A stretch of 61,730 bases of DNA from a virus (taxonomy: Duplodnaviria; Caudoviricetes): positions 1 through 61,730 of IMG/VR virus record IMGVR_UViG_3300042465_001781. The stretch is one strand, 5' to 3'. The translations under genes and the position numbers were made by a program. The notes under the pieces were generated by a model. The model worked only from the letters and a program-made list of their open reading frames with translations. It had not been told where the DNA came from and did not search any database. This document shows positions 128 to 58,050 of this stretch, in pieces; positions within the stretch are counted from its first letter, which is position 1; each line of letters opens with the position of its first letter.

Positions 128-132
128 TTTGG

Positions 133-309
133 TCATGCTTGCTCCTTCTTCATAAAATCTTCGCATTTGCGCTTCCAGCCCCAAGAATCCTTGAGCCAAT
201 ACACGGGCGCATAAAACCGTGGCTTGTGCAGCATCGCACAGTTCAAAACTGGCTTAGGCAGCGCCCGCATGGTGGCGTGCTTGCACTCGTCACAGTGCTG
301 CGTTTTCAT
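133..309 (-). CDS. Small Cys-containing hypothetical protein (MKTQHCDECKH...EQA), 58 aa
   Basis: Translated by hand; AGGGGACAAGC RBS upstream; ATGA stop/start overlap with the next gene. Confidence 0.6.
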   Translation of the reverse strand: MKTQHCDECKHATMRALPKPVLNCAMLHKPRFYAPVYWLKDSWGWKRKCEDFMKKEQA

Positions 310-469
310 GCTTGTCCCCTTTAATCTTTGTTGCCAGTACTCTGATGTACTCGCGGGCTTGTTCGGCAGGCACTTCTGAGTGGTAAAAGATCAGCGCAGC
401 TTCTACAAGCTGCTTGCTTTGGGGCGTGCTGGTAAACACCGCCCATAGGTAGTCTCGTTTTGCGCTCAT
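290..469 (-). CDS. Hypothetical protein (MSAKRDYLW...), 59 aa
   Basis: Translated by hand; ATGA overlap with the upstream gene. Confidence 0.5.
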   Translation of the reverse strand: MSAKRDYLWAVFTSTPQSKQLVEAALIFYHSEVPAEQAREYIRVLATKIKGDKHENAAL

Positions 470-693
470 GGTGCGTACCCGTCCGTGATGATTTTGTTCT
501 TGGCTTCTTCCAGCGCCCCGATCAGCGTGAGCCGGTCAGGGATAGAGGAGGTCTTGATCTTGAACTGCCCTCGGTCTTTCCAAAAGCACAGCACGATCAC
601 CGTGTCAGGGTTCTCGTCCAGCGCCTCGTGCAAGATCACTGCGGCTTGCTCTTTGTGATGATCGGTGATTGCCACGGGTGTTAACTTTGCCAT
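466..693 (-). CDS. Hypothetical protein (MAKLTPVAIT...)
   Basis: ORF track 466..801, start trimmed to the ATG at 693; packed operon context. Confidence 0.6.
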   Translation of the reverse strand: MAKLTPVAITDHHKEQAAVILHEALDENPDTVIVLCFWKDRGQFKIKTSSIPDRLTLIGALEEAKNKIITDGYAP

Positions 694-695
694 GC

Positions 696-833
696 TCAAT
701 ACCCCCATCGAATACGGAAGCACACAAGGTAAAGGTGCAGCACAAATTCGTTGCCGCTGCTCACAAACCCTATGGCAAAGCACGGCCACTTGCGGGGCCA
801 AAACTCTGTTGTCAGGCGTAGGCTTTTTCTCAT
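696..833 (-). CDS. Small hypothetical protein (MRKSLRLTTEFW...), 45 aa
   Basis: Translated by hand; TGATG overlap with the upstream gene. Confidence 0.5.
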   Translation of the reverse strand: MRKSLRLTTEFWPRKWPCFAIGFVSSGNEFVLHLYLVCFRIRWGY

Positions 834-1102
834 CACTCTTCCCCCGTCAGGTTTCTAATCCCATCTTGCAGGCCAACTATTTGCTCGGCGCGGGTGACGA
901 GTATCTTGTGCAGCGTGTCGATCTCTGTGTGCAGGGCGGCAATTTCTGCACCCATACGCTGCATCTCCTCAACCAGCACAGCCTCGGTGTTGTAGTCTGG
1001 TTTGAATTGGTCAGGTTGCTGAGGTGTCCAAGGGCACATGCAGCCCGGCAATATGCTGCCGTGCATACCTTTAACCATTCCGCAATTGGGGCAGGTGTTC
1101 AT
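833..1102 (-). CDS. Hypothetical protein, N-terminal CxxC plus coiled coil
   Basis: ORF track; overlapping start and stop codons. Confidence 0.65.
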   Translation of the reverse strand: MNTCPNCGMVKGMHGSILPGCMCPWTPQQPDQFKPDYNTEAVLVEEMQRMGAEIAALHTEIDTLHKILVTRAEQIVGLQDGIRNLTGEE

Positions 1103-1251
1103 TTCTCTGTCTCCTGTTGTGGGAAGTAGCTCGTTATAAAACGCACAGATGTGTCACCATCTTTGACCAGCACCACCAGCGTGGCAGCGGTCAGATCGCT
1201 TCCATACACACTACGCAGCGCCTCCCAGACTTTTTGCATTTCGTTGTTCAT
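1099..1251 (-). CDS. Hypothetical protein (MNNEMQKVWE...)
   Basis: ORF track trimmed to the ATG overlapping the upstream stop. Confidence 0.55.
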   Translation of the reverse strand: MNNEMQKVWEALRSVYGSDLTAATLVVLVKDGDTSVRFITSYFPQQETEK

Positions 1252-1508
1252 ATCAGCAAGCTCCAAATCCAAACGCCAGTAAAGAACAGCGCCAAGCAGA
1301 TCACCGCCAGCACCCCCATAATGGCAGTCAGCATCACCGTGCCAACTGTCTGCCATGCCTCGGGCACAGGCTTGATGTCATCGGGCACGATGGGGTACGC
1401 CTTGATCTTGCGGCGCTCGACAACAGCGGTGTCGTACTTGCAGTCCCAGATGCACTCGGGCAAGTGCGGGCAGTCGATGCGGCCCGTGTCGCAGTAGCGT
1501 TTTGTCAT
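1248..1508 (-). CDS. Hypothetical protein with Cys-rich N-terminus and C-terminal transmembrane helix
   Basis: ORF track; hydrophobic C-terminus. Confidence 0.65.
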   Translation of the reverse strand: MTKRYCDTGRIDCPHLPECIWDCKYDTAVVERRKIKAYPIVPDDIKPVPEAWQTVGTVMLTAIMGVLAVICLALFFTGVWIWSLLI

Positions 1509-1705
1509 TTTGTCCTCGCTTTCAGCATGGCGTCTGCTTGTGCGTATGCAAAATTGGCGATCTCATTTGGCATGTACTTCCAATCAGCCACCTCCAAAAT
1601 CAAAGCCTCCATCGCCTTGGCCGCAAAGTAATCGCGCAGGGTCATGCCTACATTGCAGCAGTCTCTGTCCAGCGGAAACGCTGGTCCGCCTGTTTCGTCA
1701 ATCAT
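1505..1705 (-). CDS. Conserved phage hypothetical protein (GGPAFP...GMTLRDYFAAKAM family)
   Basis: Resembles a widespread small phage protein motif; RBS upstream. Confidence 0.75.
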   Translation of the reverse strand: MIDETGGPAFPLDRDCCNVGMTLRDYFAAKAMEALILEVADWKYMPNEIANFAYAQADAMLKARTK

Positions 1706-1716
1706 GCTTTTTCTCC

Positions 1717-1866
1717 TTACTTGAACCAAAGGTAGACACCGTGCAGGATGCCAATAGGGAACATGATTGCCCCCGCCACCAAGAACCCCCACAGTCCCTG
1801 CCCAAAGCAAGTGAAGATGTGCGTAAGCCATGCGATACAACATGCAATCCAAATCAAATCAATCAT
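1717..1866 (-). CDS. Small membrane protein (MIDLIWIACC...), 49 aa
   Basis: Translated by hand; strongly hydrophobic; ATGA overlap. Confidence 0.55.
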   Translation of the reverse strand: MIDLIWIACCIAWLTHIFTCFGQGLWGFLVAGAIMFPIGILHGVYLWFK

Positions 1867-2084
1867 GTCGTCTCCTTAACTTCTTCGGTGGTAGTCACAG
1901 CCATGTACGCCTTCAAACGCTTGACGCGATTCTTGTTGTAGGTCACCAATGCTTGGGCATACTCGACACCCGTCTCTGCGCGTAGCAGTGCCATCTCAGC
2001 CTCGGCAAGCTCCCACACAATGGCTTGCGCTGGTGTCACCGACTTGAGCATCAACTTTAATTCGTTCCATATTTCTCTAATCAT
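1863..2084 (-). CDS. Hypothetical protein
   Basis: ORF track; RBS and overlaps. Confidence 0.7.
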   Translation of the reverse strand: MIREIWNELKLMLKSVTPAQAIVWELAEAEMALLRAETGVEYAQALVTYNKNRVKRLKAYMAVTTTEEVKETT

Positions 2085-2293
2085 TTCTTTTCCTTGGTTA
2101 ACCTACGGAACCTAGCGATGTTGTTCTTTATCGCTCTCGGCTCATCCACGTTTCTAGTGAGGAACTGAGGCTCTGATATGCCATCGATCATCACCTTGTA
2201 ATGGGAACCCCCACGGGGCTCCACACTCACTACACAAAACCCAGCCTTCGCGTACTCGCTGAACTGCTTTCTTAGTTGTACTGAAACTTCCAT
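2081..2293 (-). CDS. Hypothetical protein (possibly HicA-like fold, GGSHYK)
   Basis: ORF track; a GSH motif in a 70-aa basic protein is only weakly suggestive. Confidence 0.55.
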   Translation of the reverse strand: MEVSVQLRKQFSEYAKAGFCVVSVEPRGGSHYKVMIDGISEPQFLTRNVDEPRAIKNNIARFRRLTKEKK

Positions 2294-2310
2294 AGCATCC
2301 CTAACAGTTG

Positions 2311-3168
2311 TTAGCTATGCGGCTCATCAAGAACCACGACGAACGCATTCACGCTGACTCGACAACCTATGCCAGTTACCACTTGCTCATTCTCAACAAG
2401 TTTCAACAAACCCAGCTTGCCGCGAATGTGTTCAGGGAGCGTATTATCATCGTAGAGTTGTACATTGTCACCTGTCTTAACGACATAATTTTTATCAACT
2501 ACGATAACCATAGACACTTTATTGTGGTCAAACGCATCCTTGACCCCCTCCACAGTCAGCATCTCAGTCTTGAGAACGTCGTTGTCCTGCATCAGTGCGA
2601 TGGTTGGGCTATCGTGCTGCTGCGTTAGATGCAAGGCGAACTGCACTGCCCCTGCGCCTCTAGCAAACTCAACCATCTTTGCGTTGATGCTGTAGTCGTT
2701 CCGCTCGATAGTCCGTCGCTTGTTCCTGACGGCAAGATCAAGAATCACAGCGGCTTTGTGTTCAGACGCATTCAGGTGCTCCTGTGCATCAGGTTTGCCG
2801 AACATCTTCTTGATAGTCTGCAACGCCTTCTTCGGGTCTGATGTGAACATCTCATTGCTACGCTCCATCTTCTTGCCTATGCGGTCGTTGCTTATGCAGA
2901 ACCCATCCTTGCCACGGTTGTAGCCATAGGAGATAGTGCCGAGGTCAACCCCATCGTGAGTCACCCTGAACTTAATGACGGTGATCTGTTCCCGATAGCT
3001 GCTTGTTTGCCAATTGTGGGTAGTGAAAGTCCACAGCGGGTTGGATGCAGCTACGCTGACAATAAGATCGTTCAACCCCACGCTCTTTGTACTCATGGTG
3101 TAGTCGGGGTGTTGCTTGCGACACTCGTCACTGACCACTACGTTCGTCATGCTAAATAGATTACTCAT
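2311..3168 (-). CDS. Hypothetical early protein, 285 aa
   Basis: Long ORF with AGGAG RBS. Confidence 0.8.
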   Translation of the reverse strand: MSNLFSMTNVVVSDECRKQHPDYTMSTKSVGLNDLIVSVAASNPLWTFTTHNWQTSSYREQITVIKFRVTHDGVDLGTISYGYNRGKDGFCISNDRIGKKMERSNEMFTSDPKKALQTIKKMFGKPDAQEHLNASEHKAAVILDLAVRNKRRTIERNDYSINAKMVEFARGAGAVQFALHLTQQHDSPTIALMQDNDVLKTEMLTVEGVKDAFDHNKVSMVIVVDKNYVVKTGDNVQLYDDNTLPEHIRGKLGLLKLVENEQVVTGIGCRVSVNAFVVVLDEPHS

Positions 3169-3198
3169 TCTTCGTTACTCCTAACAATTGTTAATTCA

Positions 3199-4053
3199 TC
3201 ACCACTGGAACTTGCCAAGAATCGCATCGACCTTGGCCTTGACTTCCTCGCGCACCACTGCGCTCTCCTTGATGGACTCGATGTTCGCGCACAGCATGGC
3301 CGACTCCAACTGCCGACGTGCTTCCTCCAGCTTGGGGTCGTTGGTCACGTTCATCTTGCCAAGCAACTCGCACAACTCAAGCGGGTTGGTAATCAGCGAA
3401 TCGAAGTACCGCTTCTTCTCGTCGTCACCTTCCTTGTCGGTGAGCTTCTCAGAGATACCCACCAGCATGGTGTGCAGTCGGTCCCACGGCGCTTTCATCG
3501 CGTCGGCGAGCCGGTCGGTGTGCTGCTTCTCGTATGAGACACGCAACTCTTCCAAGTCGGTAGCCGACACATCCAAGCGGAAGTCACCCGACTCAGGGAT
3601 AGGGTCGATAGCCCTGCGGAACCCGAACTTCTGCCGCACTGCATCAAGCTCAGGGTAGTCGTCTGCTCGGTACATCGTGCCCAAGTTACTGGGTGCTTCA
3701 GCAACCAGACGCGGATACTCAACGAAGAAGTTGTCGCACATGAACTCGAACGTCTGCTCGTACCCGTTCATCGTCTGCTTGTACTCCATGAACAACTTAG
3801 TCGGCAACAGGCGCTGACCCTTGTCTGCCCACGGTAATGTGTGCGTGTTGTGGTACAGGCGAACTCGCGCTGCGAACTTCTCGATGTCCTTGCGTAAGGA
3901 CGTACCCGCGAACAAATTCTTCTTGGTCTGCGATGCGTCACGCACTGCTGATGCTCCCGTATTGACTTGCTCAGTCATCTCCCGGTCGATCTTGCTGGCG
4001 GGCCAGACGCTGATGTTCAACTCAACTAACACTGCTGATGCGCTAATACTCAT
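3199..4053 (-). CDS. DUF3150-like helical protein, often found with phage AAA+/VWA modules
   Basis: 284-aa ORF (TLPWAD..RLLP motif); synteny. Confidence 0.6.
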   Translation of the reverse strand: MSISASAVLVELNISVWPASKIDREMTEQVNTGASAVRDASQTKKNLFAGTSLRKDIEKFAARVRLYHNTHTLPWADKGQRLLPTKLFMEYKQTMNGYEQTFEFMCDNFFVEYPRLVAEAPSNLGTMYRADDYPELDAVRQKFGFRRAIDPIPESGDFRLDVSATDLEELRVSYEKQHTDRLADAMKAPWDRLHTMLVGISEKLTDKEGDDEKKRYFDSLITNPLELCELLGKMNVTNDPKLEEARRQLESAMLCANIESIKESAVVREEVKAKVDAILGKFQW

Positions 4054-4054
4054 T

Positions 4055-4273
4055 TCATTTCTCCGTTAAAAGTTTAATAAATCCCATCGCCGCCACCTGA
4101 GCTTCATCTTGCGTGGCGTACTCAACCCCTACAGGTATTGCCCTGTAGTTAACAAATACAATCGCCCCAAACCCATCTCCACGGGGCCTAACTTTTGCCA
4201 TAAACTCCCAATCCAACCCAGTCTTTGAACGTACGTAAAAATCCTTAGCGGCGTCGTTGCCTACCCAGCCCAT
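4055..4273 (-). CDS. Hypothetical protein ending MGFIKLLTEK
   Basis: ORF track. Confidence 0.7.
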   Translation of the reverse strand: MGWVGNDAAKDFYVRSKTGLDWEFMAKVRPRGDGFGAIVFVNYRAIPVGVEYATQDEAQVAAMGFIKLLTEK

Positions 4274-4274
4274 G

Positions 4275-4514
4275 TCATTTCTCCATTAAAAGTTTGATAA
4301 ACCCCAGTGCTGTCTGTCGGCCCATAACAACTGTTAGGGTCTTCGTAGCTAGGTGTGGTGTACTGTGATCGTCCTCCACCACAGCCCACCTATTGCCACC
4401 CACGTTCACTATCCCGTACTTCCGTATGGGAGTCCTCAAGTCCCTAAAGTCATCAATCGGGTCGTAGTCGTACTGCCAGATGATGCTGCTGTATGAAAAG
4501 TATTCGGACGCCAT
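4275..4514 (-). CDS. Hypothetical protein ending LGFIKLLMEK
   Basis: ORF track. Confidence 0.7.
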   Translation of the reverse strand: MASEYFSYSSIIWQYDYDPIDDFRDLRTPIRKYGIVNVGGNRWAVVEDDHSTPHLATKTLTVVMGRQTALGFIKLLMEK

Positions 4515-4515
4515 T

Positions 4516-4764
4516 TCATTTCCCCCCTAAAAGTTTCATGTAGTTCTTCATCTCTCGCTCATTCAATCGCCCTACCAACTGCCAACCATATCTATCGTAA
4601 ATAGTCCACTTCCCATGCTTGCGTCTGGCGTAGTGGTAGGTCTTGCCCTCGCCGTCCATAATCATTTCGTAAATGCTCTTGCCCTGCACACGGATAGAAG
4701 CCGCAAGATTTTTTACGTAGTGGTCGCTAATGTCCTTGAACACTTCTTCTTGTAAGCTACCCAT
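4516..4764 (-). CDS. Hypothetical protein ending YMKLLGGK
   Basis: ORF track trimmed to the ATG at 4764 after GGAGG. Confidence 0.65.
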   Translation of the reverse strand: MGSLQEEVFKDISDHYVKNLAASIRVQGKSIYEMIMDGEGKTYHYARRKHGKWTIYDRYGWQLVGRLNEREMKNYMKLLGGK

Positions 4765-4765
4765 A

Positions 4766-4987
4766 TCAATCCTCCGGCTTGCCCGCCAACTTCGCCATGC
4801 TATAAAGCTCGTTGCCAATCATCTTCGCGTCAAATGTTGAGTCGTTCGGCCACACATGGTGAGTGCTCTCGTTGCCCGAACGATATTTGTGTACGTACCG
4901 CTCGGCCTTCTCAAGAATCTCCAGCACCTGCACCGCGTCCTTAGTCGGCATCACATAGTTGGCATATCCCAATTGGACAATCATCAT
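4766..4987 (-). CDS. Hypothetical protein (MMIVQLGYAN...)
   Basis: ORF track trimmed; AAGGGG RBS. Confidence 0.65.
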   Translation of the reverse strand: MMIVQLGYANYVMPTKDAVQVLEILEKAERYVHKYRSGNESTHHVWPNDSTFDAKMIGNELYSMAKLAGKPED

Positions 4988-5024
4988 TTCTTTCCCCTTA
5001 ACAATTGTTAGCCTGTCGGCTGCA

Positions 5025-6272
5025 TTAGTCACGAACGTGGATGGTCTTGCCATGCTCAGCCACCATGTCACCGCCACCGACGATGGCCCAAAGAATCGGC
5101 GCAGTCCAGTCGCTACCCCAATCACTACCGACATACCCATCGGTGAGAACGATGATGCACTCAGGCTGAATGCCCTCTTCCTTGAGATACCTAGAGACAC
5201 AACTTGGGCTCGTGCCTCCGCCGCCTCGTGGCTTCGTTGAGTCGATGATGTTCGCCACATCCGCATCAGTGTATTTTTCATGTGCTGCTACCTCACAGTC
5301 CCAATAAATCAAGTCGATCACGTCAGGGTTAACTTCCTCGGCCACGCCCTTCACTTCGGACAGGAACTCAGCTATCTGCTGACCGCCTATGGAGCCTGAC
5401 GTATCCACAGCGATGACAACATGGCCCACCTTCTCACCGATCAAGCTAGGCATGTAGATGCCAGTCGAAAGATGCCGACGATTAGGCCGACGCCACGATG
5501 ACGCATCCTTGGCTCTGCACGTAGCCTTAACGAACTCACGCAGCACCTCACGCCAGTTGACCCTCGGCTCCATCAACTCGGCAAGCTCTCGGTCCATACC
5601 ACCAGCGCTGCCACCTGCACGCTTGTCAGCCATCAAGCCCTGACGAATTGCTTGGTCGATGTCACGCTCAAGCTCCTTGGCTTCGGCCTCGGTCATGTTC
5701 TTAGCGCCTTCCCAGTCGTGCTCGTCAAGCCCACCATCACCACCTTCGCCGCTCCCATCGCTAGGCTCACCGCCTTCGCCGTCACCGTTACCACCACCGT
5801 TACCCTTGTCTTTCTGCTCCTGCTTGAGCAGGTCAAACACTTGTTTGGTGTTCATGCCGCGATACTTCTCATCGACCAGACCGATCTGCTTGCCGATGTT
5901 TGGACCCTCACGGAAGACAGGCATTGCGATGATCGAACCAGCCGGATCAAGGTCTTTGAGCATCAGGTTAATAACGTAGTCACAAGCCTGATTGGCAAGC
6001 TGATGATTCTCATCGTGCAGCTTCTTCCACGTAGTCAGGTGGCGATACATCTTGTGCGATGCTTCATGCGCGATAAGAAACGCTAACTCTGTGTCTCTTA
6101 GCTTAGCCACAAATCCACGGCCATACACCTCGTCACGTCCGTTAGTCTTAGCAGTCGGCGTAGTCTCATCGACTCGCGTTGTGCCTACCATCAACACACC
6201 AGACAGCAGTGCGAACTTGGGGCTGCGCATCAAACTGATCTTGGCTTTCTGTACTCGTCGTTCTTCTAACAT
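5025..6272 (-). CDS. Metallopeptidase-like plus VWA domain protein (DUF2201-like)
   Basis: HEASH (HExxH), acidic/Gly linker, MIDAS DTSGS, GGGT and TDGY motifs. Confidence 0.88.
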   Translation of the reverse strand: MLEERRVQKAKISLMRSPKFALLSGVLMVGTTRVDETTPTAKTNGRDEVYGRGFVAKLRDTELAFLIAHEASHKMYRHLTTWKKLHDENHQLANQACDYVINLMLKDLDPAGSIIAMPVFREGPNIGKQIGLVDEKYRGMNTKQVFDLLKQEQKDKGNGGGNGDGEGGEPSDGSGEGGDGGLDEHDWEGAKNMTEAEAKELERDIDQAIRQGLMADKRAGGSAGGMDRELAELMEPRVNWREVLREFVKATCRAKDASSWRRPNRRHLSTGIYMPSLIGEKVGHVVIAVDTSGSIGGQQIAEFLSEVKGVAEEVNPDVIDLIYWDCEVAAHEKYTDADVANIIDSTKPRGGGGTSPSCVSRYLKEEGIQPECIIVLTDGYVGSDWGSDWTAPILWAIVGGGDMVAEHGKTIHVRD

Positions 6273-6283
6273 TTGTTAGCTCC

Positions 6284-6631
6284 TTAAATTTTTCTATGTT
6301 GATACATGGCTTTAGTGAAAGCCTTAATCTCTTCCTGCCTCGCCGCGAACTTATCCTTAGCCATGCCTAGCAATAGGCGCAGCATCCCCGTCACCTCCTT
6401 CACATCGGTGTACTCACCTAGTACGTTCCTGTCAGGAGTAGCAAGAGCGGTATTTCTATTGCCCCACTCGATGATTGTGAATCTGACAACACCCCCTCCG
6501 AACATGCTCCGCTCAAGCACTACTTGAATGCTTGAGTTGGGTGTCGCGTACGTACTTAGTTGTTTCTGCAAGTACTCGACCTCCTCAAGCCCCAAGGGCC
6601 ATTGCTCTTTGGCTATCGGTGCGTATAACAT
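6284..6631 (-). CDS. Hypothetical protein
   Basis: ORF track. Confidence 0.7.
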   Translation of the reverse strand: MLYAPIAKEQWPLGLEEVEYLQKQLSTYATPNSSIQVVLERSMFGGGVVRFTIIEWGNRNTALATPDRNVLGEYTDVKEVTGMLRLLLGMAKDKFAARQEEIKAFTKAMYQHRKI

Positions 6632-6742
6632 TTGTTAGGCTCCACGTGATTCGTTTGTCCATGCGCTTGCGCTTGGTCCAGTAAGGCAACGCCCACTCCA
6701 CGTTGCTCTCCACTACGATCAACCGCCCGTTAAAAAAGACTC

Positions 6743-7807
6743 TCACAGCAGGTCTTGGTTCTTAGCAACCCACCCTGCGAACGCCTTGCTTGAGAACGCA
6801 ATGCTCTGCTTGCTCGTAGTCTTCGCCACGTTGATGGCAAACACCGCCTGCCACTCGGCCTCGAACCGCTCCAGATACTCCATGAACGGCGCGATGGTGT
6901 CCTTAGTGATACGCGATATCGCACCGAACACAACGATGGCACACGCGCCCGGACTTGTCGGTACTTTCGTACCCTTTGGGTCTTTGATGGTGTCGTCCCA
7001 CGTTGGGAGTTGGTCGGCGAACTCGATGTACGCCTGCATATCACGCGCACCGCTCTCGCCCAGTGCACCAGTCAACGCCGCGATCACTGCATCTGAGTCG
7101 TTAACCGCACGGGTCTTGACGATGTTCGATGCCGTCTCCAATGACCGTGGACTAACAAATGCTAGTTGGTTGCGCTTGGGGTTGTAGATGTACGGGTTGT
7201 CGGCCTGTGCTGCATCGGTGTAGCTTGCCAGTACGTGCGGATACTGGCTCACCCACGCACACACCTCGGGCGCTACGTCCTTACTGATAGCCCAGCTAAT
7301 CCACTGCTCAGCGTCTGGCTTCTGAATAGTCACCGGAACCAGTCGGTTGCGACTGTGCGCCTTCAAGCTATCGCCCACGCCGTCAGTGCTCAAGTTGCCC
7401 GTCAAAAACACAATATTCTGCTCGTGCAGTGAAATGTCACCCAGCCGTGGATTGGCCTTCTCAAGCATGGGGTGCAGCATGTTCTTCACTGGCTCAGCGC
7501 CTTTGGTGAACTCGTCGAGCATGATGACCAGTGGTTTCTTCTCGTGAATCTTGAACCGAGCGTTCGGGTAGTAGCGCGTGGTCTTGGTGTCGTGATCGAT
7601 CACCGGCATTGCAATGTCACCCAAGTCCATATTGGGTACGTCGATATAGGCATGGTCGAAGCCTAAGTCACCAGCGATCTGCTCTAACAGTGAAGACTTG
7701 CCGATGCCGGGCTCGCCTTGCAATAAGAACCGCAGGGTTGGGTTGGTGCGGATAAGAACACCCGCTTGCTTCAATGTCACCGACTTGCCAAACTTGATCT
7801 CAGCCAT
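6743..7807 (-). CDS. MoxR-like AAA+ ATPase
   Basis: Walker A GEPGIGKS, Walker B IMLDE, TGN sensor, SPRS; AGGAG RBS before MAEIKF. Confidence 0.9.
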   Translation of the reverse strand: MAEIKFGKSVTLKQAGVLIRTNPTLRFLLQGEPGIGKSSLLEQIAGDLGFDHAYIDVPNMDLGDIAMPVIDHDTKTTRYYPNARFKIHEKKPLVIMLDEFTKGAEPVKNMLHPMLEKANPRLGDISLHEQNIVFLTGNLSTDGVGDSLKAHSRNRLVPVTIQKPDAEQWISWAISKDVAPEVCAWVSQYPHVLASYTDAAQADNPYIYNPKRNQLAFVSPRSLETASNIVKTRAVNDSDAVIAALTGALGESGARDMQAYIEFADQLPTWDDTIKDPKGTKVPTSPGACAIVVFGAISRITKDTIAPFMEYLERFEAEWQAVFAINVAKTTSKQSIAFSSKAFAGWVAKNQDLL

Positions 7808-7901
7808 CTGATTACTCCTAATTGCGCCTAACATTTGTTAGGACTTTACTAACACACAAAAAAATAAAAACACTCGGACACATCTAACCTACTCAACTTA
7901 T

Positions 7902-7930
7902 ATTATAACACATTGTTACACCTAGATCAA
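7902..7930 (-). promoter_or_regulatory. Sigma70-type early promoter TTGATC-17-TATAAT
   Basis: Perfect -10, 17-bp spacer, intergenic; near-duplicate of the promoter at 10330. Confidence 0.8.
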
Positions 7931-7990
7931 TAGGAGGTCTCATTTCTAGTCATCGCCGATGACTAAGTGGTAACAATTGTTAGCGCTCTT

Positions 7991-9019
7991 TTATGCCAGT
8001 TCTTCGTACGCGCTCTTTAGCCAACTCATGTACTTGCGCGAACCCAACTCACCGAGGGGCAAGTCCACCCGCCGTATCGCCTCGTCGCTGTGCCACTTGT
8101 ACAGAACCTCCAGCATGTTCTTGCGTATGGCTACGGCTGAACATGCGATATTGCCACCCTGTGTCCGTTGCTGAACGCCTGACAGTGCACACATTAGCAT
8201 GAACGCCCCATAAAAAGAGGTGTGCTGCTTGTCGCTCGTGTCCGATATAAGGGCGATGAACTTAGTCACCGCGAACGAATAGTCGTTCCTGCTTCTGTCG
8301 TCCAAGCAACGGGCGAACTGATACACGCTACGGGGTGAGTTAATCGTTATCTCCATACCACCAGCTACGCTCTGCACTAATTCCCCCTCGGTGAACTTCA
8401 CTATCTCGCTGCCGTTGGCTTGGCCCCAATACCGCCCGTCAGCCTTCTCCTTGCGCAGTGCCACCATGCTGCCAAAGTACTTGATGAACTCGGCATAGCG
8501 TCGGCGAATTGCACTCGTGCCTGTTCGGTTAATCTCCAGCCTGTACTGCGGCTCACCATTGAGCACCTCGTACTGCCAGTATCTATTCCTGCGCATGAGC
8601 AGGGAAGTGGAATCCAAACTGTTTGAGCCCCGTGGGATTTCAAACCTGCCGTTGGCTGCGTGCAGCACCGTTGCCCCCTCGTGAGTGCTGACGCTAACAT
8701 TTGTTAGCCTACGAATGAACGCATGGGTGCTCTGTGTCACATACCCACCATCACGCACCGCTACAACGCCGTCGAACCTGAACCTAACCACGGTTGTGTT
8801 GTACAGCACGCAGTTGTATGACGGCTTGCACTCTCCATCGCTGCCGCCCTTGTCGTTCATCCAATGGCTCTTCGTTATGCTGAACCTATTAATGTCCCTG
8901 CGCTCACCCAGCGGTTTGCTGTGCTCACTGCGCCCACGGATGTGCTTAGTGTTCTCAAAGAACTTCTCTGCTGCGGCGTAGTCGGCGATAGTCGCCATTC
9001 TGTCTGTTGCTTTGCTCAT
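7991..9019 (-). CDS. Hypothetical early protein, 342 aa
   Basis: Long ORF with GGAG RBS. Confidence 0.8.
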   Translation of the reverse strand: MSKATDRMATIADYAAAEKFFENTKHIRGRSEHSKPLGERRDINRFSITKSHWMNDKGGSDGECKPSYNCVLYNTTVVRFRFDGVVAVRDGGYVTQSTHAFIRRLTNVSVSTHEGATVLHAANGRFEIPRGSNSLDSTSLLMRRNRYWQYEVLNGEPQYRLEINRTGTSAIRRRYAEFIKYFGSMVALRKEKADGRYWGQANGSEIVKFTEGELVQSVAGGMEITINSPRSVYQFARCLDDRSRNDYSFAVTKFIALISDTSDKQHTSFYGAFMLMCALSGVQQRTQGGNIACSAVAIRKNMLEVLYKWHSDEAIRRVDLPLGELGSRKYMSWLKSAYEELA

Positions 9020-9031
9020 TTCATTCTCCCT

Positions 9032-9181
9032 TTATGCCATCTCGTATATCTTCACTCTCTTGAGGCTCGGGTATAGGCAGACGAACTTCTCCTTGGCCGT
9101 CACCCTGCTGCGTGCCTCAACCATGTCGGTCTCCCAGCGCTTGAACCGCGCACTCCAGCCGACTACTGCGTATCGCTTCAT
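9032..9181 (-). CDS. Small hypothetical protein (MKRYAVVGW...), 49 aa
   Basis: Translated by hand; ATGA overlap. Confidence 0.55.
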   Translation of the reverse strand: MKRYAVVGWSARFKRWETDMVEARSRVTAKEKFVCLYPSLKRVKIYEMA

Positions 9182-9396
9182 AGGATTCTCCCCAGCTTGT
9201 TGCACACAAAGACCTTCATCGCTGCCATCGCTTGCTCATCCTTGCCCATGTGCAGCAGGTCGTAAATCTCACGGATACTGAGGTCGTCCGCAAGGCTTTC
9301 GCAGGACTCTGAACCCCGCTCGGCTAGCTCGTCGCGTAGCTCTCCATCAGAGAACTGACTGAGGTCTACTTCCACTTCTACAGTTACGTAGCTCAT
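9178..9396 (-). CDS. Acidic hypothetical protein (MSYVTVEVEVDL...)
   Basis: ORF track trimmed; GGAG RBS. Confidence 0.7.
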   Translation of the reverse strand: MSYVTVEVEVDLSQFSDGELRDELAERGSESCESLADDLSIREIYDLLHMGKDEQAMAAMKVFVCNKLGRIL

Positions 9397-9657
9397 GCTT
9401 TCTCCTTCATTAGTTTCTTGAATTGGTGCATAACGCTGTGCCTCCCCTTGGCGATGAACTCGTAGGTTGCTGGTTGGCTTTTGCCCCAAGAGTTGAACTC
9501 CTTCTCTTGAACAACGGCTAACTCAACAGAGTTAGAAAAGAACACACGGCACAGCACCCATACATCAGTCTTAAGGCACACTTGCTTCCTCCAACTCGCG
9601 TACCTTGTCCCACTCAGCGGCTTTGTATTCTTCCCATGTCATGTCGTTGCTCCTTCC

Positions 9658-9873
9658 TTAACAGTTGTTAATTGCTGCGGCCAGAGTCAGCAACTCGGGG
9701 TCGATTAACTCCGGCTCACCAAACGCACCCATGTCGTTGTCCAGCAGGGCCAGCAACTCAGCAAACTCGCCCGATACCTCCTCGGCCAGTGATACATCAG
9801 GCTCATCACCCAGCAGCACCTGTGCGGCTAACTCTTGGGCGCGTTCCAACATAGCGGTAAGTCTTGTTTTCAT
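9658..9873 (-). CDS. Acidic hypothetical protein
   Basis: ORF track; AAGGA RBS. Confidence 0.65.
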   Translation of the reverse strand: MKTRLTAMLERAQELAAQVLLGDEPDVSLAEEVSGEFAELLALLDNDMGAFGEPELIDPELLTLAAAINNC

Positions 9874-9903
9874 TTTGTGTCCTTAGATAACAGTTGTTAG
9901 GTC

Positions 9904-10140
9904 TTACGACCGAGTTGATTTCTGGTTTGTGTCCAGCAGGGTTGTGCGTGCTGCTGCGGTTGTGACGAATTGGTAGTTACCCTTGGTGTACTCCTGCACC
10001 ACGCACCATGAGGCGCGTTCGGCTTTGGCTCGGTCTTCACCGCAGAACAGGCAACAGCGATAGCCCAGCGCCCAGCGCTCGACGGGGAACTCATCACCGC
10101 AGTCGGCGCACTCTTTCCAGTCCATGTTGCCCATCTTCAT
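9904..10140 (-). CDS. DksA/TraR-like C4 zinc-finger protein
   Basis: CADCGDEFPVERWALGYRCCLFC pattern. Confidence 0.6.
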   Translation of the reverse strand: MKMGNMDWKECADCGDEFPVERWALGYRCCLFCGEDRAKAERASWCVVQEYTKGNYQFVTTAAARTTLLDTNQKSTRS

Positions 10141-10244
10141 GCCCTCCAGAACCAGATATCCAGACCGGCCACGATGAGGCACACGGCATAGATGAAGTAC
10201 AGGATGCGCTGGGCGGGGTTTAAGTTTGGTAGTTTGTCTGACAT
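10137..10244 (-). CDS. Small membrane protein (MSDKLPNLN...WFWRA), 35 aa
   Basis: Translated by hand; single hydrophobic helix; first ORF after the promoter at 10330. Confidence 0.5.
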   Translation of the reverse strand: MSDKLPNLNPAQRILYFIYAVCLIVAGLDIWFWRA

Positions 10245-10329
10245 TTTGTGTTTCCCTTGGTATGCCTAACAACTGTTAGGGCTGCTGGATTCGGGCGCAG
10301 TGAGTCCGCTTTTTTCCCATCCAACTTAT

Positions 10330-10358
10330 ATTATAACACAAAGTTATGTCTAAATCAA
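10330..10358 (-). promoter_or_regulatory. Sigma70-type early promoter TTGATT-17-TATAAT
   Basis: Perfect -10, 17-bp spacer. Confidence 0.8.
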
Positions 10359-10847
10359 TAGGAAGTCCCATTTTTAGCGATGGGCAATGACCAAAAGGGA
10401 TGTTACGAAATGGGGGCAGGGATTGTTATAATGTTACGCTTGACATTGTAAAACATAACAGAATATGTAACAAAAAGAACCCAGCATCCATGCGGGTTGC
10501 GGGGCGAAAATTGATGTATTGTTATAATGTTATATGATTTATAAGAAAGAGAGAGCCAGCCCAAAAAAGTTGCGTAATACAAATTGCGCTTGCTGCCTTG
10601 CGCGGCGCTTCAGATTTGACAGTGTTGGCGCTCTCAATTTCAAAATAAAACGTAACATGTAACAATAGGGGTTAAGTCGTTGATTTCATTGAAGAAAGTG
10701 TGTTACGAAAGTTTTTTGGCTTTGTAACATTGCCCCAAAACTGCCCAACTTTCGTAACAGACTAACAAATGTTACATTCTGGATTTGACAATACCAGCAG
10801 TAGGGGTTAATTTAGAACATAACAATATAACAGTCCGACGACGATTT

Positions 10848-10938
10848 TGGCCGCTGACGCCGCCCGGAGAACTGGTATACACCGACTACTCAAGCATCCA
10901 GAAGCATGGCCGCTGACGCCGCCCGGAGAACTGGTATA
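10848..10938. repeat. Perfect 32-bp direct repeat (10848-10879 and 10907-10938) with a 27-bp spacer
   Basis: TGGCCGCTGACGCCGCCCGGAGAACTGGTATA present twice. Confidence 0.92.
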
Positions 10939-10983
10939 GACCAGCCCTAACAAATGTTAGGTCGGTCGAGAAAATCCGGACAC

Positions 10984-11041
10984 AAAAAAGCCCGCATAAA
11001 GCGGGCAGGTGCGGGCACGAAAAAACCCGCCGAAGCGGGTT
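10984..11041 (-). terminator. Two tandem rho-independent terminators downstream of 11086..11598
   Basis: Minus strand AACCCGC-TTCG-GCGGGTTTTTT and GCCCGC-TTTAT-GCGGGC-TTTTTT. Confidence 0.8.
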
Positions 11042-11085
11042 AGTGAAGACTAACATATGTTAGGGGGCCGAAGCCCCCTCCCGTT

Positions 11086-11598
11086 TTACTTGCCGCTGTC
11101 GATCATGGACAAGTCCATTCCAAACGCTGTCAGTGCTGAGCTAACATGAGTCAGAACCTGCGACTGTTTATCGCTCAGACTATCCTGACGCTTCAGGAAT
11201 TTGTACAGTGGCACCAGCGTATCCACAATACGAACATCAGCGGACTTGCCGTGCTTTGCGCCACCCTCAGATTCCGGGGCAGTACCAAACATGGCCTCAT
11301 TCCCGTATTTGCGAACCCGTGCCCATACTGTAGAAGGGTTCGGGTGCTTGCCATTATGGTGCGCTGCGTGCAGTGCTTTATAGAACAACTCTTTCTCAGC
11401 CTTGACCAACTTACCCGCGTCGCTGATGTCATTTGCTTCGAAGGCAAACCATTCCGTCACGAATGACTCATTTAAGACCAGAGCATAGTTACGCTCAGAC
11501 GATGCAGTCGCGCCGGACTTATCGGCCACCTCTTGGCGGGCGGCGGCGATAGCGGTGAGGTCAAATGGGATAGCACTAGAGACAATGGATACTGACAT
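11086..11598 (-). CDS. Hypothetical first early protein with its own promoter and terminators
   Basis: 170-aa ORF. Confidence 0.8.
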   Translation of the reverse strand: MSVSIVSSAIPFDLTAIAAARQEVADKSGATASSERNYALVLNESFVTEWFAFEANDISDAGKLVKAEKELFYKALHAAHHNGKHPNPSTVWARVRKYGNEAMFGTAPESEGGAKHGKSADVRIVDTLVPLYKFLKRQDSLSDKQSQVLTHVSSALTAFGMDLSMIDSGK

Positions 11599-11653
11599 GA
11601 TACAAACCCTTTCAAGGTTTTATACTCGGGGACAATTCCCTTTGTATGACTGT

Positions 11654-11682
11654 ATTATATCACACAAAGTTATGTAATGCAA
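11654..11682 (-). promoter_or_regulatory. Sigma70-type early promoter TTGCAT-17-TATAAT
   Basis: Spacer shares ACATAACTTTGTGT with the promoter at 10330. Confidence 0.78.
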
Positions 11683-12018
11683 GCAAAGCGGGGGACAATA
11701 AATAAAGGGCATAACAATTGTTAGGGCGGTACGGCAAGGCAAAACGGGTAAGGGTTAACCCCACTACCACCCCACCCACCGGAATACGGGGAAAGGTACC
11801 TAGGGTCCTATACACTGGGTTGCACTCAAACAATATTCATTTTTTAAAAACGGGGTACATATTTTGTGTTCTAAAAAACACCCCCCACCCCCTGACTTTT
11901 TCCAAGACTACATTTATTTTTACTTGGCTGAAAAAAACCCCCCGGCATCATTCCAAAAAGCAAACCCCCCACCCCCATATTTTTTCTGTTATAGTTCGGC
12001 CATCTTCCCGCTAACCCG

Positions 12019-12639
12019 GTGCCTATGATCTCTATTACGCCTGACGCGGATCATCCGATCCCTTTCGATATGTCCGAGGAGTTGCCCAACACTCTTGCGG
12101 AAAGCGTAGCTATTGCTGCCAATACGATAGACATGCTCGAACAGCTTGGCGGCAGCATAGATTTCAAGCCAGAAGATTTTGCCAAGGCGGCTACGCTCAT
12201 CAAGGGCGAGAACCAAACCCCGCAGGTAAAGAACATCACAAGTACCGGCACTGCCAAGGTGCTGTCCATTGCGGTTAAAGAGTACGACTTCCAAGTCTTC
12301 TCTGACGTGCAGCAAGCACGGAACTTCATCACGAACAAGTTGGTGGGGATCGCAGACTGCGGAGACCCCAAGCTAGAACTCAAAGCTCTTGAGCTACTCG
12401 GCAAACACTCAGACATTGGCCTCTTCACGGAGCGCAGCGAGATCACGGTGCATCACACTACAAGTGAGTCACTGGAGAACTCCATCAAGGAGCGGGTCAA
12501 GCGTCTGCTCAACGCAGAGGTGGTAGATATCTCCCCAATTGACGATTTGGACGAACAATTAGGCCCCATCACTGAGCCGGGGACGTTCAAAGAAGTCGAT
12601 ACAGAGTCTCTGGATACGCTAGAAGATACAAATGACTAG
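12019..12639 (+). CDS. Putative terminase small subunit
   Basis: Immediately upstream of and overlapping terL; ALELLGK motif; mainly synteny. Confidence 0.6.
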   Translation: MPMISITPDADHPIPFDMSEELPNTLAESVAIAANTIDMLEQLGGSIDFKPEDFAKAATLIKGENQTPQVKNITSTGTAKVLSIAVKEYDFQVFSDVQQARNFITNKLVGIADCGDPKLELKALELLGKHSDIGLFTERSEITVHHTTSESLENSIKERVKRLLNAEVVDISPIDDLDEQLGPITEPGTFKEVDTESLDTLEDTND

Positions 12640-50109: not shown

Positions 50110-50165
50110 AGGGTTTCTTTAGGAAATAGCTACGCAGGGGGCCGAAGCCCCCCTTGTGGCACGGA

Positions 50166-50405: not shown

Positions 50406-50408
50406 TGC

Positions 50409-51299: not shown

Positions 51300-51301
51300 T
51301 T

Positions 51302-51718: not shown

Positions 51719-51746
51719 CTAATGCTCCTAACAATTGTTAATGGGT

Positions 51747-54588: not shown

Positions 54589-56404
54589 CGCCATAACTAG
54601 CTCCATATCCTGTTTCACAATTAAGGGGTAGCTCCAACCCCCATGAGGGTCGGATTCGCATACAGAGCTCGACGTATTCCTTCCCTGTTTCAGCTTCAGC
54701 GATTGGAACTAGGGAGCCCACGGCATCATGCACCGTTATAACGACACGGTACTTGCGGTCCACGGCAAGCATCTGCTCACCAATGATAATCCGGGCTAAC
54801 GCTTGGCACACGTTCTCAATTACCTTGCCGCCATATATCCGATTAGGTATAACAGCGCGGCCTTTCTTGGTGTCGTATACAAGCTCGTTCTTGCCGTTGT
54901 CGTCTTGGTGCTTACGCAAGTTGGGGTACTTCAAGTACAGCCCGTTCGGCAGGAGGATGCCCTTGCGTCCCTCGATCTTGAGTACTCCGTTGCGCCCGAG
55001 CGTGGTGCTCTGGTTGTCCATGATGGCATCCAAAATCTTACCGGCTTCTCTCCACAGCGCCGTGATCTTGGGGTAAGTTCTCCGGTATACGTCGATGATG
55101 TTCTGAGCTTCATCTAGCGTAATAGTCACACCGAAGTTCTTCAGTTGGGTCATAAACTTGACAGCACCCATGCCATAACCGCACCCAAGAATCGTGGTCT
55201 TACCCACGAAGCGTTCACGGGTGTCAGCCTTGGTGATTGTCCGGCCATAGATAGCCGAAGCCATGATGCAGTACACATCCTCGTCACGATCAAAAGCGGC
55301 GACCAAATCTTCCTGCCCAGCCAGCCATGCCAGCGTACGGGCTTCAATCTGAGAAGAGTCCGAGTCCATGAAAACGTAGCCAGTCGGCGCAAGGATGGCG
55401 TGCTTCAGGGGCGAAGTGCGGGGCAGATTCTGTAGGTTGAGCTTGTCATCACCACCCCAACGGCCTGTGTGGGCAGCGTAATAACGAAGGGGAACTGGCA
55501 TGGGTCCACGATCAGCAATCCCAAGGAACCTCGCAGTCCGTGTCTCTTCCAGCGTAGACTTAACACCCAGTCGAGCAGCCACAATCGCCTGTACGATCAC
55601 GTTCTCGTGCTCCAATAACGCCTTGAAGCCCTCGTCATTCTTAGCGAAGGCATAAGTACCCTTGCCCGTAGTCGGACTGATCTTCATCGGCGGCTCTACG
55701 CCAAGAGACAGAAGCACGCTGGCGAGTTTGGGGTTGCTCATCAGATCGTCCTTGTCAATGAGCATCTTGCTCATCAGCATTTCTTTCTTCTCCCTAACAA
55801 TTGTTAGATGGTCGGTGAGCACCCGCTTGTCCAACTGCAACACTGGCTCGGTGAACATACGCACAGTCAGGTCGATGAGACGCAACTCCACGCCGGGGAA
55901 CCCCTCGCTCATGTGCCCGAACAACTTCCACGTCATAGCTACATCGTTCTTGCAGTAGCCGCCGTAGTCGGCAAGTTCTTCAGGGGTGAAGGTGTCTCTG
56001 AAGTAGTTGATGTACTGCTTGACCTGCTCACCCTTAACGCCCACACCGTAGTGCTCGGCAAGCACAGCCAAGCTGCCGCCGACCTCAGTGCCATGCAGCG
56101 CACGTCCCATCGACAGTGTGTCCAGCCAGCCCTTCGGCTTGATACCAAAATGGTGGCTCAGGATGAACCCATCGAACACGGCGTTGTGCGCCAGTGCAAG
56201 TGACTCGCTCCAATCAAATTGCTTCAGGAACGCAGCAGTCTCGATCATGGAACCACTGAACCACTGAGGCTCATCATTCTCTATCTGTACTGCAACACCG
56301 ATAACTTCAAAGCGGGGGTCACGTACGTACTCTTCTGTCGTCTGCTTGGCAAAGCCAAGGTCACCGCCGTAGGCAGTCTCAAAGTCAATCGTAATAATCT
56401 TCAT
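54581..56404 (-). CDS. polA: Family A DNA polymerase with 3'-5' exonuclease domain
   Basis: IDFET (ExoI), HNAVFD, DSSQIEAR (motif A), KTTILGCGYG (motif B), VHD (motif C). Confidence 0.93.
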   Translation of the reverse strand: MKIITIDFETAYGGDLGFAKQTTEEYVRDPRFEVIGVAVQIENDEPQWFSGSMIETAAFLKQFDWSESLALAHNAVFDGFILSHHFGIKPKGWLDTLSMGRALHGTEVGGSLAVLAEHYGVGVKGEQVKQYINYFRDTFTPEELADYGGYCKNDVAMTWKLFGHMSEGFPGVELRLIDLTVRMFTEPVLQLDKRVLTDHLTIVREKKEMLMSKMLIDKDDLMSNPKLASVLLSLGVEPPMKISPTTGKGTYAFAKNDEGFKALLEHENVIVQAIVAARLGVKSTLEETRTARFLGIADRGPMPVPLRYYAAHTGRWGGDDKLNLQNLPRTSPLKHAILAPTGYVFMDSDSSQIEARTLAWLAGQEDLVAAFDRDEDVYCIMASAIYGRTITKADTRERFVGKTTILGCGYGMGAVKFMTQLKNFGVTITLDEAQNIIDVYRRTYPKITALWREAGKILDAIMDNQSTTLGRNGVLKIEGRKGILLPNGLYLKYPNLRKHQDDNGKNELVYDTKKGRAVIPNRIYGGKVIENVCQALARIIIGEQMLAVDRKYRVVITVHDAVGSLVPIAEAETGKEYVELCMRIRPSWGLELPLNCETGYGASYGDC

Positions 56405-57504: not shown

Positions 57505-58050
57505 TTAAACTTCTTTGCCGAACTCAAGGCGGTCGGCGACCAGCTTGGCGTACCCTGCGATATCAACCCAGCTATCAGCGTAGTCAGGGTCACCGTTCAC
57601 GATGCGGCCCAGCTTGTGGCAGATCATGTCGAGGGCTTCGGCTTGGTCAAGAGCAAACGACTTGTCGTGGCGAACAGCGTGTTCATGCAAAACGCGCTTG
57701 AGTTTCTGCGTGAGGGTAGCGTGGTCAATAAACTTGCCGTACTTGCTGCCTCGCTCGGCCAGTGTTGCGTCGATACCTTCAAGTGCCTTCGGTGCAGCGG
57801 TGCGGTCACGGCCTTGGGTAGCTTTGAACACCAACTCCTCCATCTCTGCCGTGGTCATTTTTGTCGCGGTATCAATAGATGTGTTGGAGCTAACAGTTGT
57901 TCCGGTTTTCCAATCGTCTTTCTTCATCTTCCCTTTGATCGTGCAGACGTAGGCATAAGACGCTTTGGTGGCCGCGCACACATCACGCAGGGTCGCGTTC
58001 GGGTTCTTGGCAATGTAGTTACGGACGGTTTGTGCTTTAGATTTTTTCAC
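57505..58050 (-). CDS. N-terminal HTH-like region plus DUF6378-like helical domain
   Basis: L.ERG..YG.F...K..RI..GD..Y.DSW.DIAGYA. Confidence 0.7.
   Translation of the reverse strand: MKKSKAQTVRNYIAKNPNATLRDVCAATKASYAYVCTIKGKMKKDDWKTGTTVSSNTSIDTATKMTTAEMEELVFKATQGRDRTAAPKALEGIDATLAERGSKYGKFIDHATLTQKLKRVLHEHAVRHDKSFALDQAEALDMICHKLGRIVNGDPDYADSWVDIAGYAKLVADRLEFGKEV

Follow-up and report, generated by a model that had tools for sequence, protein, structure and literature searches.

The early arm of a lake-water phage (Caudoviricetes; IMG/VR record IMGVR_UViG_3300042465_001781) carries an array of a short palindrome, TAACA-NN-TGTTA (TAACANNTGTTA), whose half-sites recur in related phages across a gap of lineage-specific length. 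We propose, with a probability of roughly 0.45, that a dimeric phage-encoded protein with specificity for the spacing binds these sites on double-stranded DNA and thereby controls early transcription, the palindromes forming its operator array. The window, by which we mean the whole stretch analysed, is a complete 61.7-kb viral record (61,730 nucleotides, nt) with terminal repeats, circularly closed. Its genes lie on the minus strand in 1-11700 and 47263-61730 and on the plus strand in a 35-kb structural block, as indicated by GC skew and by lists of open reading frames (ORFs). Circular closure joins the two minus-strand stretches into a single arm that begins near 11700.

A palindrome array in the early arm

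The palindrome occurs in 18 exact copies in the window, against a chance expectation of 0.03, and none of 100 shuffles reached 18. Sixteen copies fall within 2302-11723 and the other two are at 51729 and 55795; all are confined to the minus-strand early arm, where the sense-strand form of the site is C-TAACA-NN-TGTTA-G. Allowing up to one mismatch gave 20 matches versus 1.54 expected, the two additions being 7153 and 57891. Between positions 11724 and 51728 there was no match at 0 or 1 mismatch, and a backwards control pattern of the palindrome gave 0 matches in the window. The array had first been noticed in a preliminary description made from the sequence alone, and it is confirmed here, together with that description's statements that well under one copy was to be expected by chance, that the late block was free of the motif and that a near copy lay at 57890 (our one-mismatch match at 57891). 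Its seventeen perfect copies (15 plus 2) were one too few, and its coordinates designate the right sites with starts one base too low, the flanking C having been counted in. The minus-strand orientation of the early genes, the completeness of the record with its terminal repeats and the place of site 11712 ahead of the first promoter are additions to that description. The palindromes, which have no strand, are located as follows.

11712..11723, palindrome with spacer AT, some 30 bp upstream of the P1 promoter's -35, centre near -70
11051..11062, palindrome with sense spacer TA, directly after the GC hairpin 3' of the first gene, before the terminator
10948..10959, palindrome after the second terminator; equivalent site in the related genomes G003 and G004
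10763..10774, palindrome in a non-coding, iteron-rich region
10267..10278, palindrome in the 5' leader of promoter P2, ahead of a short ORF and the Zn-ribbon gene
9888..9899, palindrome between stop 9904 and ATG 9873
9659..9670, palindrome overlapping the stop of ORF 9658-9873; in a close relative a mosaic junction falls at its edge (9670 to 9923)
8695..8706, palindrome within ORF 7991-9019
7971..7982, palindrome 9 nt past the stop of 7991-9019, upstream of promoter P3
7829..7840, palindrome in the P3 5' leader, 21 nt before the AAA ATPase ATG at 7807
7153..7164, near copy with 1 mismatch, within the AAA ATPase gene
6626..6637, palindrome containing ATG 6631 of gene 6284-6631; in a close relative a mosaic junction falls at its edge (6638 to 6747)
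6267..6278, palindrome containing ATG 6272 of the DUF2201/VWA gene
4999..5010, palindrome 11 nt before ATG 4987
4325..4336, palindrome within ORF 4275-4514; in relatives the core is kept and the spacer and one flank base vary
3182..3193, palindrome between stop 3199 and ATG 3168; its 3' end continues into GGAG
2302..2313, palindrome whose TAA is the stop of gene 2311-3168, 8 nt before ATG 2293
57891..57902, near copy with 1 mismatch
55795..55806, palindrome within the gene of the family-A DNA polymerase, in the stretch that separates the exonuclease domain from the polymerase domain
51729..51740, palindrome before ATG 51718

Ten of the 18 sites touch a translation start region (10267, 9888, 9659, 7829, 6626, 6267, 4999, 3182, 2302 and 51729), three lie within ORFs (8695, 4325 and 55795) and five in non-coding control DNA (11712, 11051, 10948, 10763 and 7971). 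The ATG of a start codon is contained in sites 6267 and 6626, AGGAG continues directly from sites 3182 and 51729, and at 2302, 4999, 7829, 9888 and 10267 the distance from site to ATG is 8-22 nt. These contexts, and the position of 8695 and 55795 within coding sequence, had been described correctly, with 4325 now added to the latter. The description of the palindromes as marks of translation starts is true for ten sites and fails for the remaining eight, which are intragenic or in control DNA; the association with start codons is real but partial.

The gap length of the site is specific to the lineage

A pattern scan of related genomes had been proposed with the preliminary description. We carried it out on the loci retrieved by a search with the DUF2201 protein, taking the best 80 of the 98 stretches that encode a relative. 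The palindrome family is present in 76 of these 80 loci, with 2-23 sites per locus, and no member of it was found in four (L028, L051, L057 and L060). The half-sites are common across lineages, with TAAC/GTTA or else TGAC/GTCA cores, and it is the length of the gap between them that varies by lineage; we refer to gaps of one, two and three bases as N1, N2 and N3. By majority type, 34 loci are N1, 34 are N2 (35 with the window), three are N3, four have TGACA-N2-TGTCA and one has TGACA-N1 (two copies). Type-specific sites occupy a single early region of 10-12 kb in the genomes G002 and G003 (both 100% complete), G004 (95%) and G005 (a 43% fragment), and G001, a member of a palindrome-free clade, contains no palindromes.

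The type of site changes readily. On a DUF2201 tree of 81 rows it switches at least 13 times, and at the start codon of DUF2201 both the window and L025 have an N2 site where L055 has an N1 site. The gene content of the early arm is likewise highly variable among relatives. Positions 2000-12000 had no nucleotide match in the public phage collection, and no cultured phage in that collection has the early arm or the first-gene protein in common with the window. The nearest named phage by terminase, DSL-LC04 (57% identity), has no array, with 2 loose pattern matches versus 3 for the control.

One explanation of the types would be that they stand for hosts, the sites being targets of a host protein (a regulator, a nucleoid protein or a nuclease) that is recruited to, or kept off, the first-expressed DNA. 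We consider this very unlikely. Site type does not follow G+C, a rough proxy for the host, the spans of N1 loci (0.41-0.55) and N2 loci (0.46-0.54) overlapping without separation of the types; and the very close relatives L037 (N1) and L025 (N2), whose proteins are 68-99% identical except for one hypervariable gene, differ in type. It is in the first module of early genes, moreover, that the palindrome-free clade is unlike the others. What a host protein has in its favour is that a phage binder is unproven and that neither of the two leading phage candidates shows a recognisable fold for nucleic-acid binding.

Type-matched sites at silent codon positions

The peptide TASNIVR of the AAA ATPase is conserved in all relatives. 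N1 genomes encode it with TCT AAC ATT GTT AGG, a perfect N1 site, whereas most non-N1 genomes use other codons, and the silent positions around the site vary freely. This place is about 680 nt inside the gene, remote from any start. We counted distinct sequences carrying a site by the strict pattern there and at three further places, four in all in three conserved genes, with the following result.

AAA ATPase, N1 site: 18/20 N1 genomes, 6/19 N2 genomes, 0/5 others
DUF2201, N1 site: 19/21 N1 genomes, 0/26 N2 genomes, 0/8 others
Gene 3199-4053, first place, N1 site: 16/20 N1 genomes, 0/25 N2 genomes, 0/8 others
Gene 3199-4053, second place, N2 site: 0/21 N1 genomes, 10/23 N2 genomes, 0/8 others

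A hand count at TASNIVR (20/21 versus 7/26) gives p = 1.5e-6 in a Fisher test, a value that is too small since the rows are related. Sites that match the type of their genome at synonymous positions show that the palindromes are under selection remote from start codons and, taken with the type-matched site at the DUF2201 start, that something in each genome reads the length of the gap.

The DNA polymerase gene offers a further intragenic context. There (55765-55806, minus strand) a Shine-Dalgarno-like GGGAGAAG and an ATG in frame at 55780 come after the palindrome, and it is conceivable that an internal start yields a product with only the polymerase domain. In some N1 relatives, this linker region also has an N1 site.

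Candidate binding proteins

The best candidate for the binder, unproven as yet, is the product of the first early gene, which lies with two terminator-like hairpins behind promoter P1.

11086..11598, minus strand, first early gene, 170 aa, best binder candidate
10990..11041, minus strand, pair of terminator-like hairpins with T runs, 3' of the first early gene

Its model is all-helical, with a predicted local distance difference test score (pLDDT) of 84. The protein had no match in Pfam or PHROG; a fold search gave nothing at E <= 0.001 in Foldseek and a best VIA Z of 6.6, to generic helical bundles, and an Atlas search returned viral hypothetical proteins only. The family is small and viral, with 302 representative clusters, and may represent a new kind of regulator. 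The product is predicted to form a symmetric homodimer: the score was 0.69, against 0.00 for the best of three controls, with contact agreement between runs of at least 81% and a partner pLDDT of at least 77. The mark used was reached by 20 of 30 proteins solved as one-chain pairs and by 1 of 23 solved as single chains, counts that apply only roughly here, a custom alignment having been used.

The first gene also follows the site type comparatively well. On 38 taxa, 4 type changes suffice for its tree (3-4 on subsets), versus 4-8 for eight other families on the same taxa, and its two deep homologous clades divide N1 and N2 genomes 16/2 and 2/16. The palindrome-free G001 is without the first-gene family, without the small Zn-ribbon protein and without the rest of the first ~4 kb module, while it retains the ribbon-helix-helix (RHH), helix-turn-helix (HTH), AAA, DUF2201 and polymerase genes.

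Three candidates had been named in the preliminary description, and only 11086-11598 stands among them; the RHH-like and HTH-like proteins occur in the palindrome-free G001 and do not track the type. The RHH-like protein (58037-58258), which has a GRGxGKKP arm, a beta strand and a FitA-like Pfam match only at E = 0.06, needs 7 type changes on 29 taxa, and its strand residues do not follow site type. The HTH_3-like protein (50166-50405) is 50% identical in G001, and its similarity is 63% in one N1 genome and the same in one N2 genome.

We rejected two further proteins. The Zn-ribbon protein (~9904-10140) is absent from the palindrome-free clade, yet its tree needs 7 changes on 36 taxa. The hypervariable protein 2311-3168 is 42% identical between L037 and L025, but identities of 28-48% are found within one type too. 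An unbiased screen of families against type gave associations only along large clades.

Both proteins have features worth recording. The Zn-ribbon protein, encoded on the minus strand and found in 42 of the 80 loci, has four cysteines and a strongly conserved C-terminal half (..TTLKQTNPKENR); an ORF of 35 codons that has a Shine-Dalgarno of its own lies before the gene. The hypervariable protein (285 aa, minus strand) is found in all relatives and shows 28-48% identity where neighbouring genes show 67-91%. Its model (pLDDT 93) consists of a beta domain, a long helical hairpin and a small C-terminal beta domain, and had no fold match.

DNA or RNA as the target

In the operator array that we propose, a two-fold symmetric phage protein would recognise a pair of C-TAAC half-sites separated by an A/T-only gap whose length is fixed. 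With sites spread over the ~10-kb early arm, at gene boundaries, in gene interiors, beside early promoters and in leaders, the protein would time or shut down early transcription by the host RNA polymerase, through promoter-proximal binding and elongation roadblocks. The gap (N1, N2, N3) or the core (TGAC) is set lineage by lineage and shared by the sites of a genome; protein and sites would thus co-evolve in the manner of immunity specificity, and the binder would most likely be the first early gene product as a homodimer. Three leftward, sigma-70-like promoters were found in the arm, P2 and P3 being nearly identical in sequence; the promoter scan did not list P1, whose -35 agrees at only 3 of 6 positions.

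11654..11682, minus strand, promoter P1, TTGCAT, 17 nt, TATAAT, before the first early gene, read from the sequence
10330..10358, minus strand, promoter P2, TTGATT, 17 nt, TATAAT, with TG
7902..7930, minus strand, promoter P3, TTGATC, 17 nt, TATAAT, with TG

The composition of the sites was analysed in 384 perfect 14-mers and 230 one-mismatch variants, each at the spacing of its own genome; spacings 4 and 6 bases wider, used as a control, gave 0 perfect and 2-3 one-mismatch copies. The TAAC and GTTA cores are nearly invariant. The inner A and inner T are exchanged for T or A (17 and 32 cases) and almost never for G or C. Among the one-mismatch variants the outer left C is replaced by A in 65, G in 31 and T in 7, and the outer right G by T in 44, C in 11 and A in 6, so that the preferences on the two sides are mirror images, yet independent, the combination of A on the left and T on the right being seen 10 times against ~6.7 expected. 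Flank positions 2-8 show no covariation, Watson-Crick pairs matching the expectation from base frequencies (at position +-2, 100 versus 109.8 expected in N1 and 95 versus 92.0 in N2). The gap base of all unique N1 sites is A in 171, T in 121, G in 4 and C in 3. Where an N2 site holds a start codon its gap is AA in 64 cases and TT in 1, the AA supplying the ATG.

These data bear on a second explanation, in which the target is RNA: a hairpin in the early mRNA, with stem CUAAC/GUUAG and a loop of 3-5 A/U, would be bound by a loop-size-specific phage protein that represses translation starts or directs cleavage or termination. We find this unlikely. The commonest variants (left C to A, right G to U) break the closing pair without compensation, the flanks do not covary, and a one-sided hairpin binder has no need of mirrored preferences on left and right. 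In N1 sites the inner A and U (T in the DNA) are symmetric although a 1-nt loop could not let them pair, and the gap of N1 sites without an internal start is strand-symmetric (A 128 versus T 113, p = 0.37). Sites are found upstream of the -35 of the first promoter, by 40-75 nt, in three genomes, namely the window, G002/L055 (promoter 6220-6248, site 6169) and G003, and such sites are probably not transcribed with the early genes; those of the AAA gene are ~680 nt within it. No Rfam family matched, the hits in Rfam 15 for 9800-12100 of the window and 8200-10200 of L100 being only far below the gathering score. The preliminary description had left the choice between a dimer site on DNA and an RNA hairpin undecided; flank symmetry, the lack of covariation and the pre-promoter and intragenic sites favour DNA, and from such features of the sequence we would set the odds at roughly 2:1 for DNA.

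Several observations weigh against the DNA operator array, and many of them speak for an RNA hairpin. N2 sites without an internal start are biased on the sense strand towards A (AA 99 versus TT 54, p = 3e-4; also AC 22 versus GT 7 and GA 13 versus TC 1). In addition to the ten start regions touched in the window, 359 of 830 loose sites adjoin a start codon preceded by a Shine-Dalgarno, versus 178 of 830 random positions in what is a lax test, and 138 of the 830 contain a start codon. Some copies tip terminator-like hairpins (in L015, 4435-4462, 12 pairs and then a T run), and TTTT follows 6 of 18 TGACA sites, versus 8 of 299 N1 and 9 of 302 N2 sites. As RNA with two flanking pairs the sites have predicted energies of -3.8 to -8.0 kcal/mol, and a binder sensitive to loop size would account for the lineage-specific gap as well. 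Other points concern the spacing rule and the binder. The rule is not absolute, because several N2 genomes retain a few N1 copies, such as L024 with 11 N2 and 6 N1. The first-gene product has no DNA-binding fold or family that we could recognise from sequence or model, and its isoelectric point is 5-7 in most members. Once relatedness is allowed for, the association of type with first-gene clade is not significant, with 4 independent pairs of which 2-3 are concordant and 0 opposite (p >= 0.25), and the window itself is an N2 genome with a first gene in the 'N1' clade. Finally, the effect of binding could equally be activation, insulation or something non-transcriptional.

With regard to the position of sites relative to genes, the offsets from site to start are 5-7 nt, with the start in the site, or scattered over 18-44 nt. 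A crude gene caller, which over-extends ORFs and so inflates the counts of sites 'inside', placed 404 of 624 strict sites in intergenic or start-zone positions, versus 144 of 624 random positions.

It is a doubtful extension of the DNA operator array that gap length and core form a specificity code by which the first early protein tells its own early DNA from that of co-infecting relatives. If so, the code would provide apparently lytic lake phages with fast-switching, mutually blind 'immunity' types (N1, N2, N3 and TGACA), and would tie together, at the same sites, transcription control, competitor exclusion and the swapping of gene cassettes.

Sites at the seams of gene exchange

The sites also coincide with places where related genomes diverge. 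Of 4435 ends of homology, 555 are no more than 15 nt from a site, versus 126 of 4435 random positions (4.4-fold), and a site is at the junction in 5 of 19 clean insertions or deletions. In the contig of a close relative from another lake sample, 2 of 5 joints fall exactly at the edge of a site (6638 and 9670). The clearest case is a 504-nt gene of L029, flanked by two copies of the site with its Shine-Dalgarno; a single copy stands at this place in L019. Together with its flanks, the half-site (R-Y-C-T-A-A-C ... G-T-T-A-G-R) also resembles the integron core motifs, RYYYAAC and GTTRRRY; attC sites are far longer than 11-15 bp.

The main function of the palindromes might then be that of recombination junctions at which cassettes are gained, lost or swapped between co-infecting relatives, either through short homology, as T4-type phages do with their promoter-early stem-loop (PeSL) cassettes, or with the help of a site-specific enzyme, as at integron attC. 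The highly variable gene content of the arm fits such a role. We nevertheless judge it unlikely. There is no site at 14 of the 19 indels and 3 of the 5 joints, and Phage_integrase (Pfam) had no match in the complete genome, in a search whose control matched 14 of 14 genomes. Type-specific sites at synonymous positions of core genes are not at cassette boundaries, and a genome-wide switch of the gap presupposes something that reads spacing, whereas recombination by short homology does without it. We read the seams as a consequence of having the same 12-20 nt repeated from one gene boundary to the next: under the DNA operator array, the gain, loss and replacement of genes at the sites would be a by-product.

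Other features of the early arm

Besides the MoxR-like AAA ATPase (6743-7807) and the DUF2201 metallopeptidase/VWA protein (5025-6272), which form a conserved pair (5025-7807, minus strand) in the early arm of all relatives, the arm encodes an SNF2 helicase, a PD-(D/E)XK nuclease, a family-A DNA polymerase and a DUF927 primase-helicase. PF00940 (phage-type RNA polymerase) had no match in the window, and the control genomes were silent too. In the structural block, a protein of 1988 aa (41063-47029, plus strand) has LPD39, a large polyvalent protein domain, as its sole family match.

Two of the promoters carry palindromes of other spacing. An off-type N3 copy, TAACA-ATG-TGTTA (7906-7918), spans the spacer and -10 of P3, and P2 has TAAC-TTTGT-GTTA at the equivalent place (10334-10346). 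They may be promoter-occluding operators, or may be due to chance.

The non-coding region 10330-10830 (minus strand) holds 15 lone GTAACA/TGTTAC words, several as direct repeats, with a conserved TGTTACATGTTAC-like element. Counterparts are found in G001 (sense 6200-6800) and G005 (sense 15880-15990). Because G001 has no palindromes and the palindromes of G005 are of the TGACA type, this cluster is a separate element, and we dropped lone TAACA/TGTTA words as support for DNA binding; they are possibly a replication origin or the iterons of another regulator.

After the palindrome at 10948, an element of ~36 nt (..TATACCAGTTCTCCGGGCGGCGTCAGCGGCCA) occurs in two direct copies (~10850-10940, minus strand). 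Its region had no Rfam match. The counterpart in G004 (sense ~29260-29290) contains GGCGGTAGCGTA, a sequence similar to the ops/JUMPStart antitermination element. G-rich runs (GGGGTGGGGGG-like) lie on the minus strand at 11760-11990, between the divergent early and late arms, and similar runs are present in G001, G002, G003 and G005.

Comparison with known systems

The attC sites of integrons are long imperfect palindromes with inner and outer core pairs, whereas the site here has 11-15 bp and one arm pair, and no integron-type tyrosine recombinase was matched. The RegA family (PF01818), the type of T4 translational repressor, had no match here, the control genomes being without a match too.

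Detailed knowledge of dispersed operator arrays comes from no more than a few temperate phages in culture. In Cluster A mycobacteriophages the stoperators have 13 bp, are asymmetric, share a single orientation and occur genome-wide, as sites for the monomeric immunity repressor of temperate phages. In contrast, the array here is palindromic, has mirror-symmetric flanks and a lineage-specific gap, and is found in the early arm only; the window gave no Phage_integrase match, and the candidate binder has no HTH match. The stoperators of L5, Bxb1 and relatives (on which see PMC9283540, PMC6550527 and PMC3203893) have in common with the array of the window the many copies of a short conserved site dispersed in transcription units, often between genes, and specificities that diverge between related phages. 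Their phage protein acts also at promoters and blocks elongation, which for the window array is a proposal only.

Closest in distribution are the start-associated sequences (SAS) and extended start-associated sequences (ESAS) of Cluster K mycobacteriophages, as described in the relevant part of PMC3203893. Like the palindromes, SAS are confined to the non-structural half of the genome and are mostly beside translation starts, sometimes with the stop of the upstream gene in the repeat and with unrelated genes following (PMC3203893). ESAS are inverted repeats whose consensus differs between subclusters without RNA-type compensation, and were hence proposed in that part of the paper to be DNA-binding sites, the authors leaving the binder and function of SAS and ESAS open (PMC3203893). 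The differences are in the make-up of the repeats. SAS have 13 bp, are asymmetric, contain a Shine-Dalgarno core and stand 3-7 bp before the start, and ESAS have imperfect arms of 17 bp and a gap of 4-13 bp, according to the same part of PMC3203893. Here we find a single perfect palindrome of 12-15 bp with no fixed register to the start, with intragenic and pre-promoter copies, and with a gap whose length is strict and genome-wide.

The PeSL cassettes of T4-type phages (PMC2839356, PMC4122927) are repeats at gene boundaries of hyperplastic early regions and at junctions of insertion, deletion and replacement; the palindromes, too, lie at gene boundaries, and at some such junctions (5 of 19 indels, 2 of 5 joints). 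PeSL are composites of promoter and terminator, whereas here the arm has only three promoters and most sites have no promoter or T run.

The literature that we searched, PMC9599517 included and with supplements outside the search, held no description of the palindrome motif. The related loci form a natural data set, with 76 members, four site types and at least 13 switches, in which the co-evolution of protein and site and the choice between a DNA and an RNA target are directly testable; they also illustrate that a regulatory repeat can double as a seam of gene exchange in uncultivated freshwater phages. Judged by its sequence, the array departs from the defining features of stoperators, SAS and PeSL, and it adds to these systems a strict, genome-wide and frequently switching gap length together with selection at silent sites within genes.

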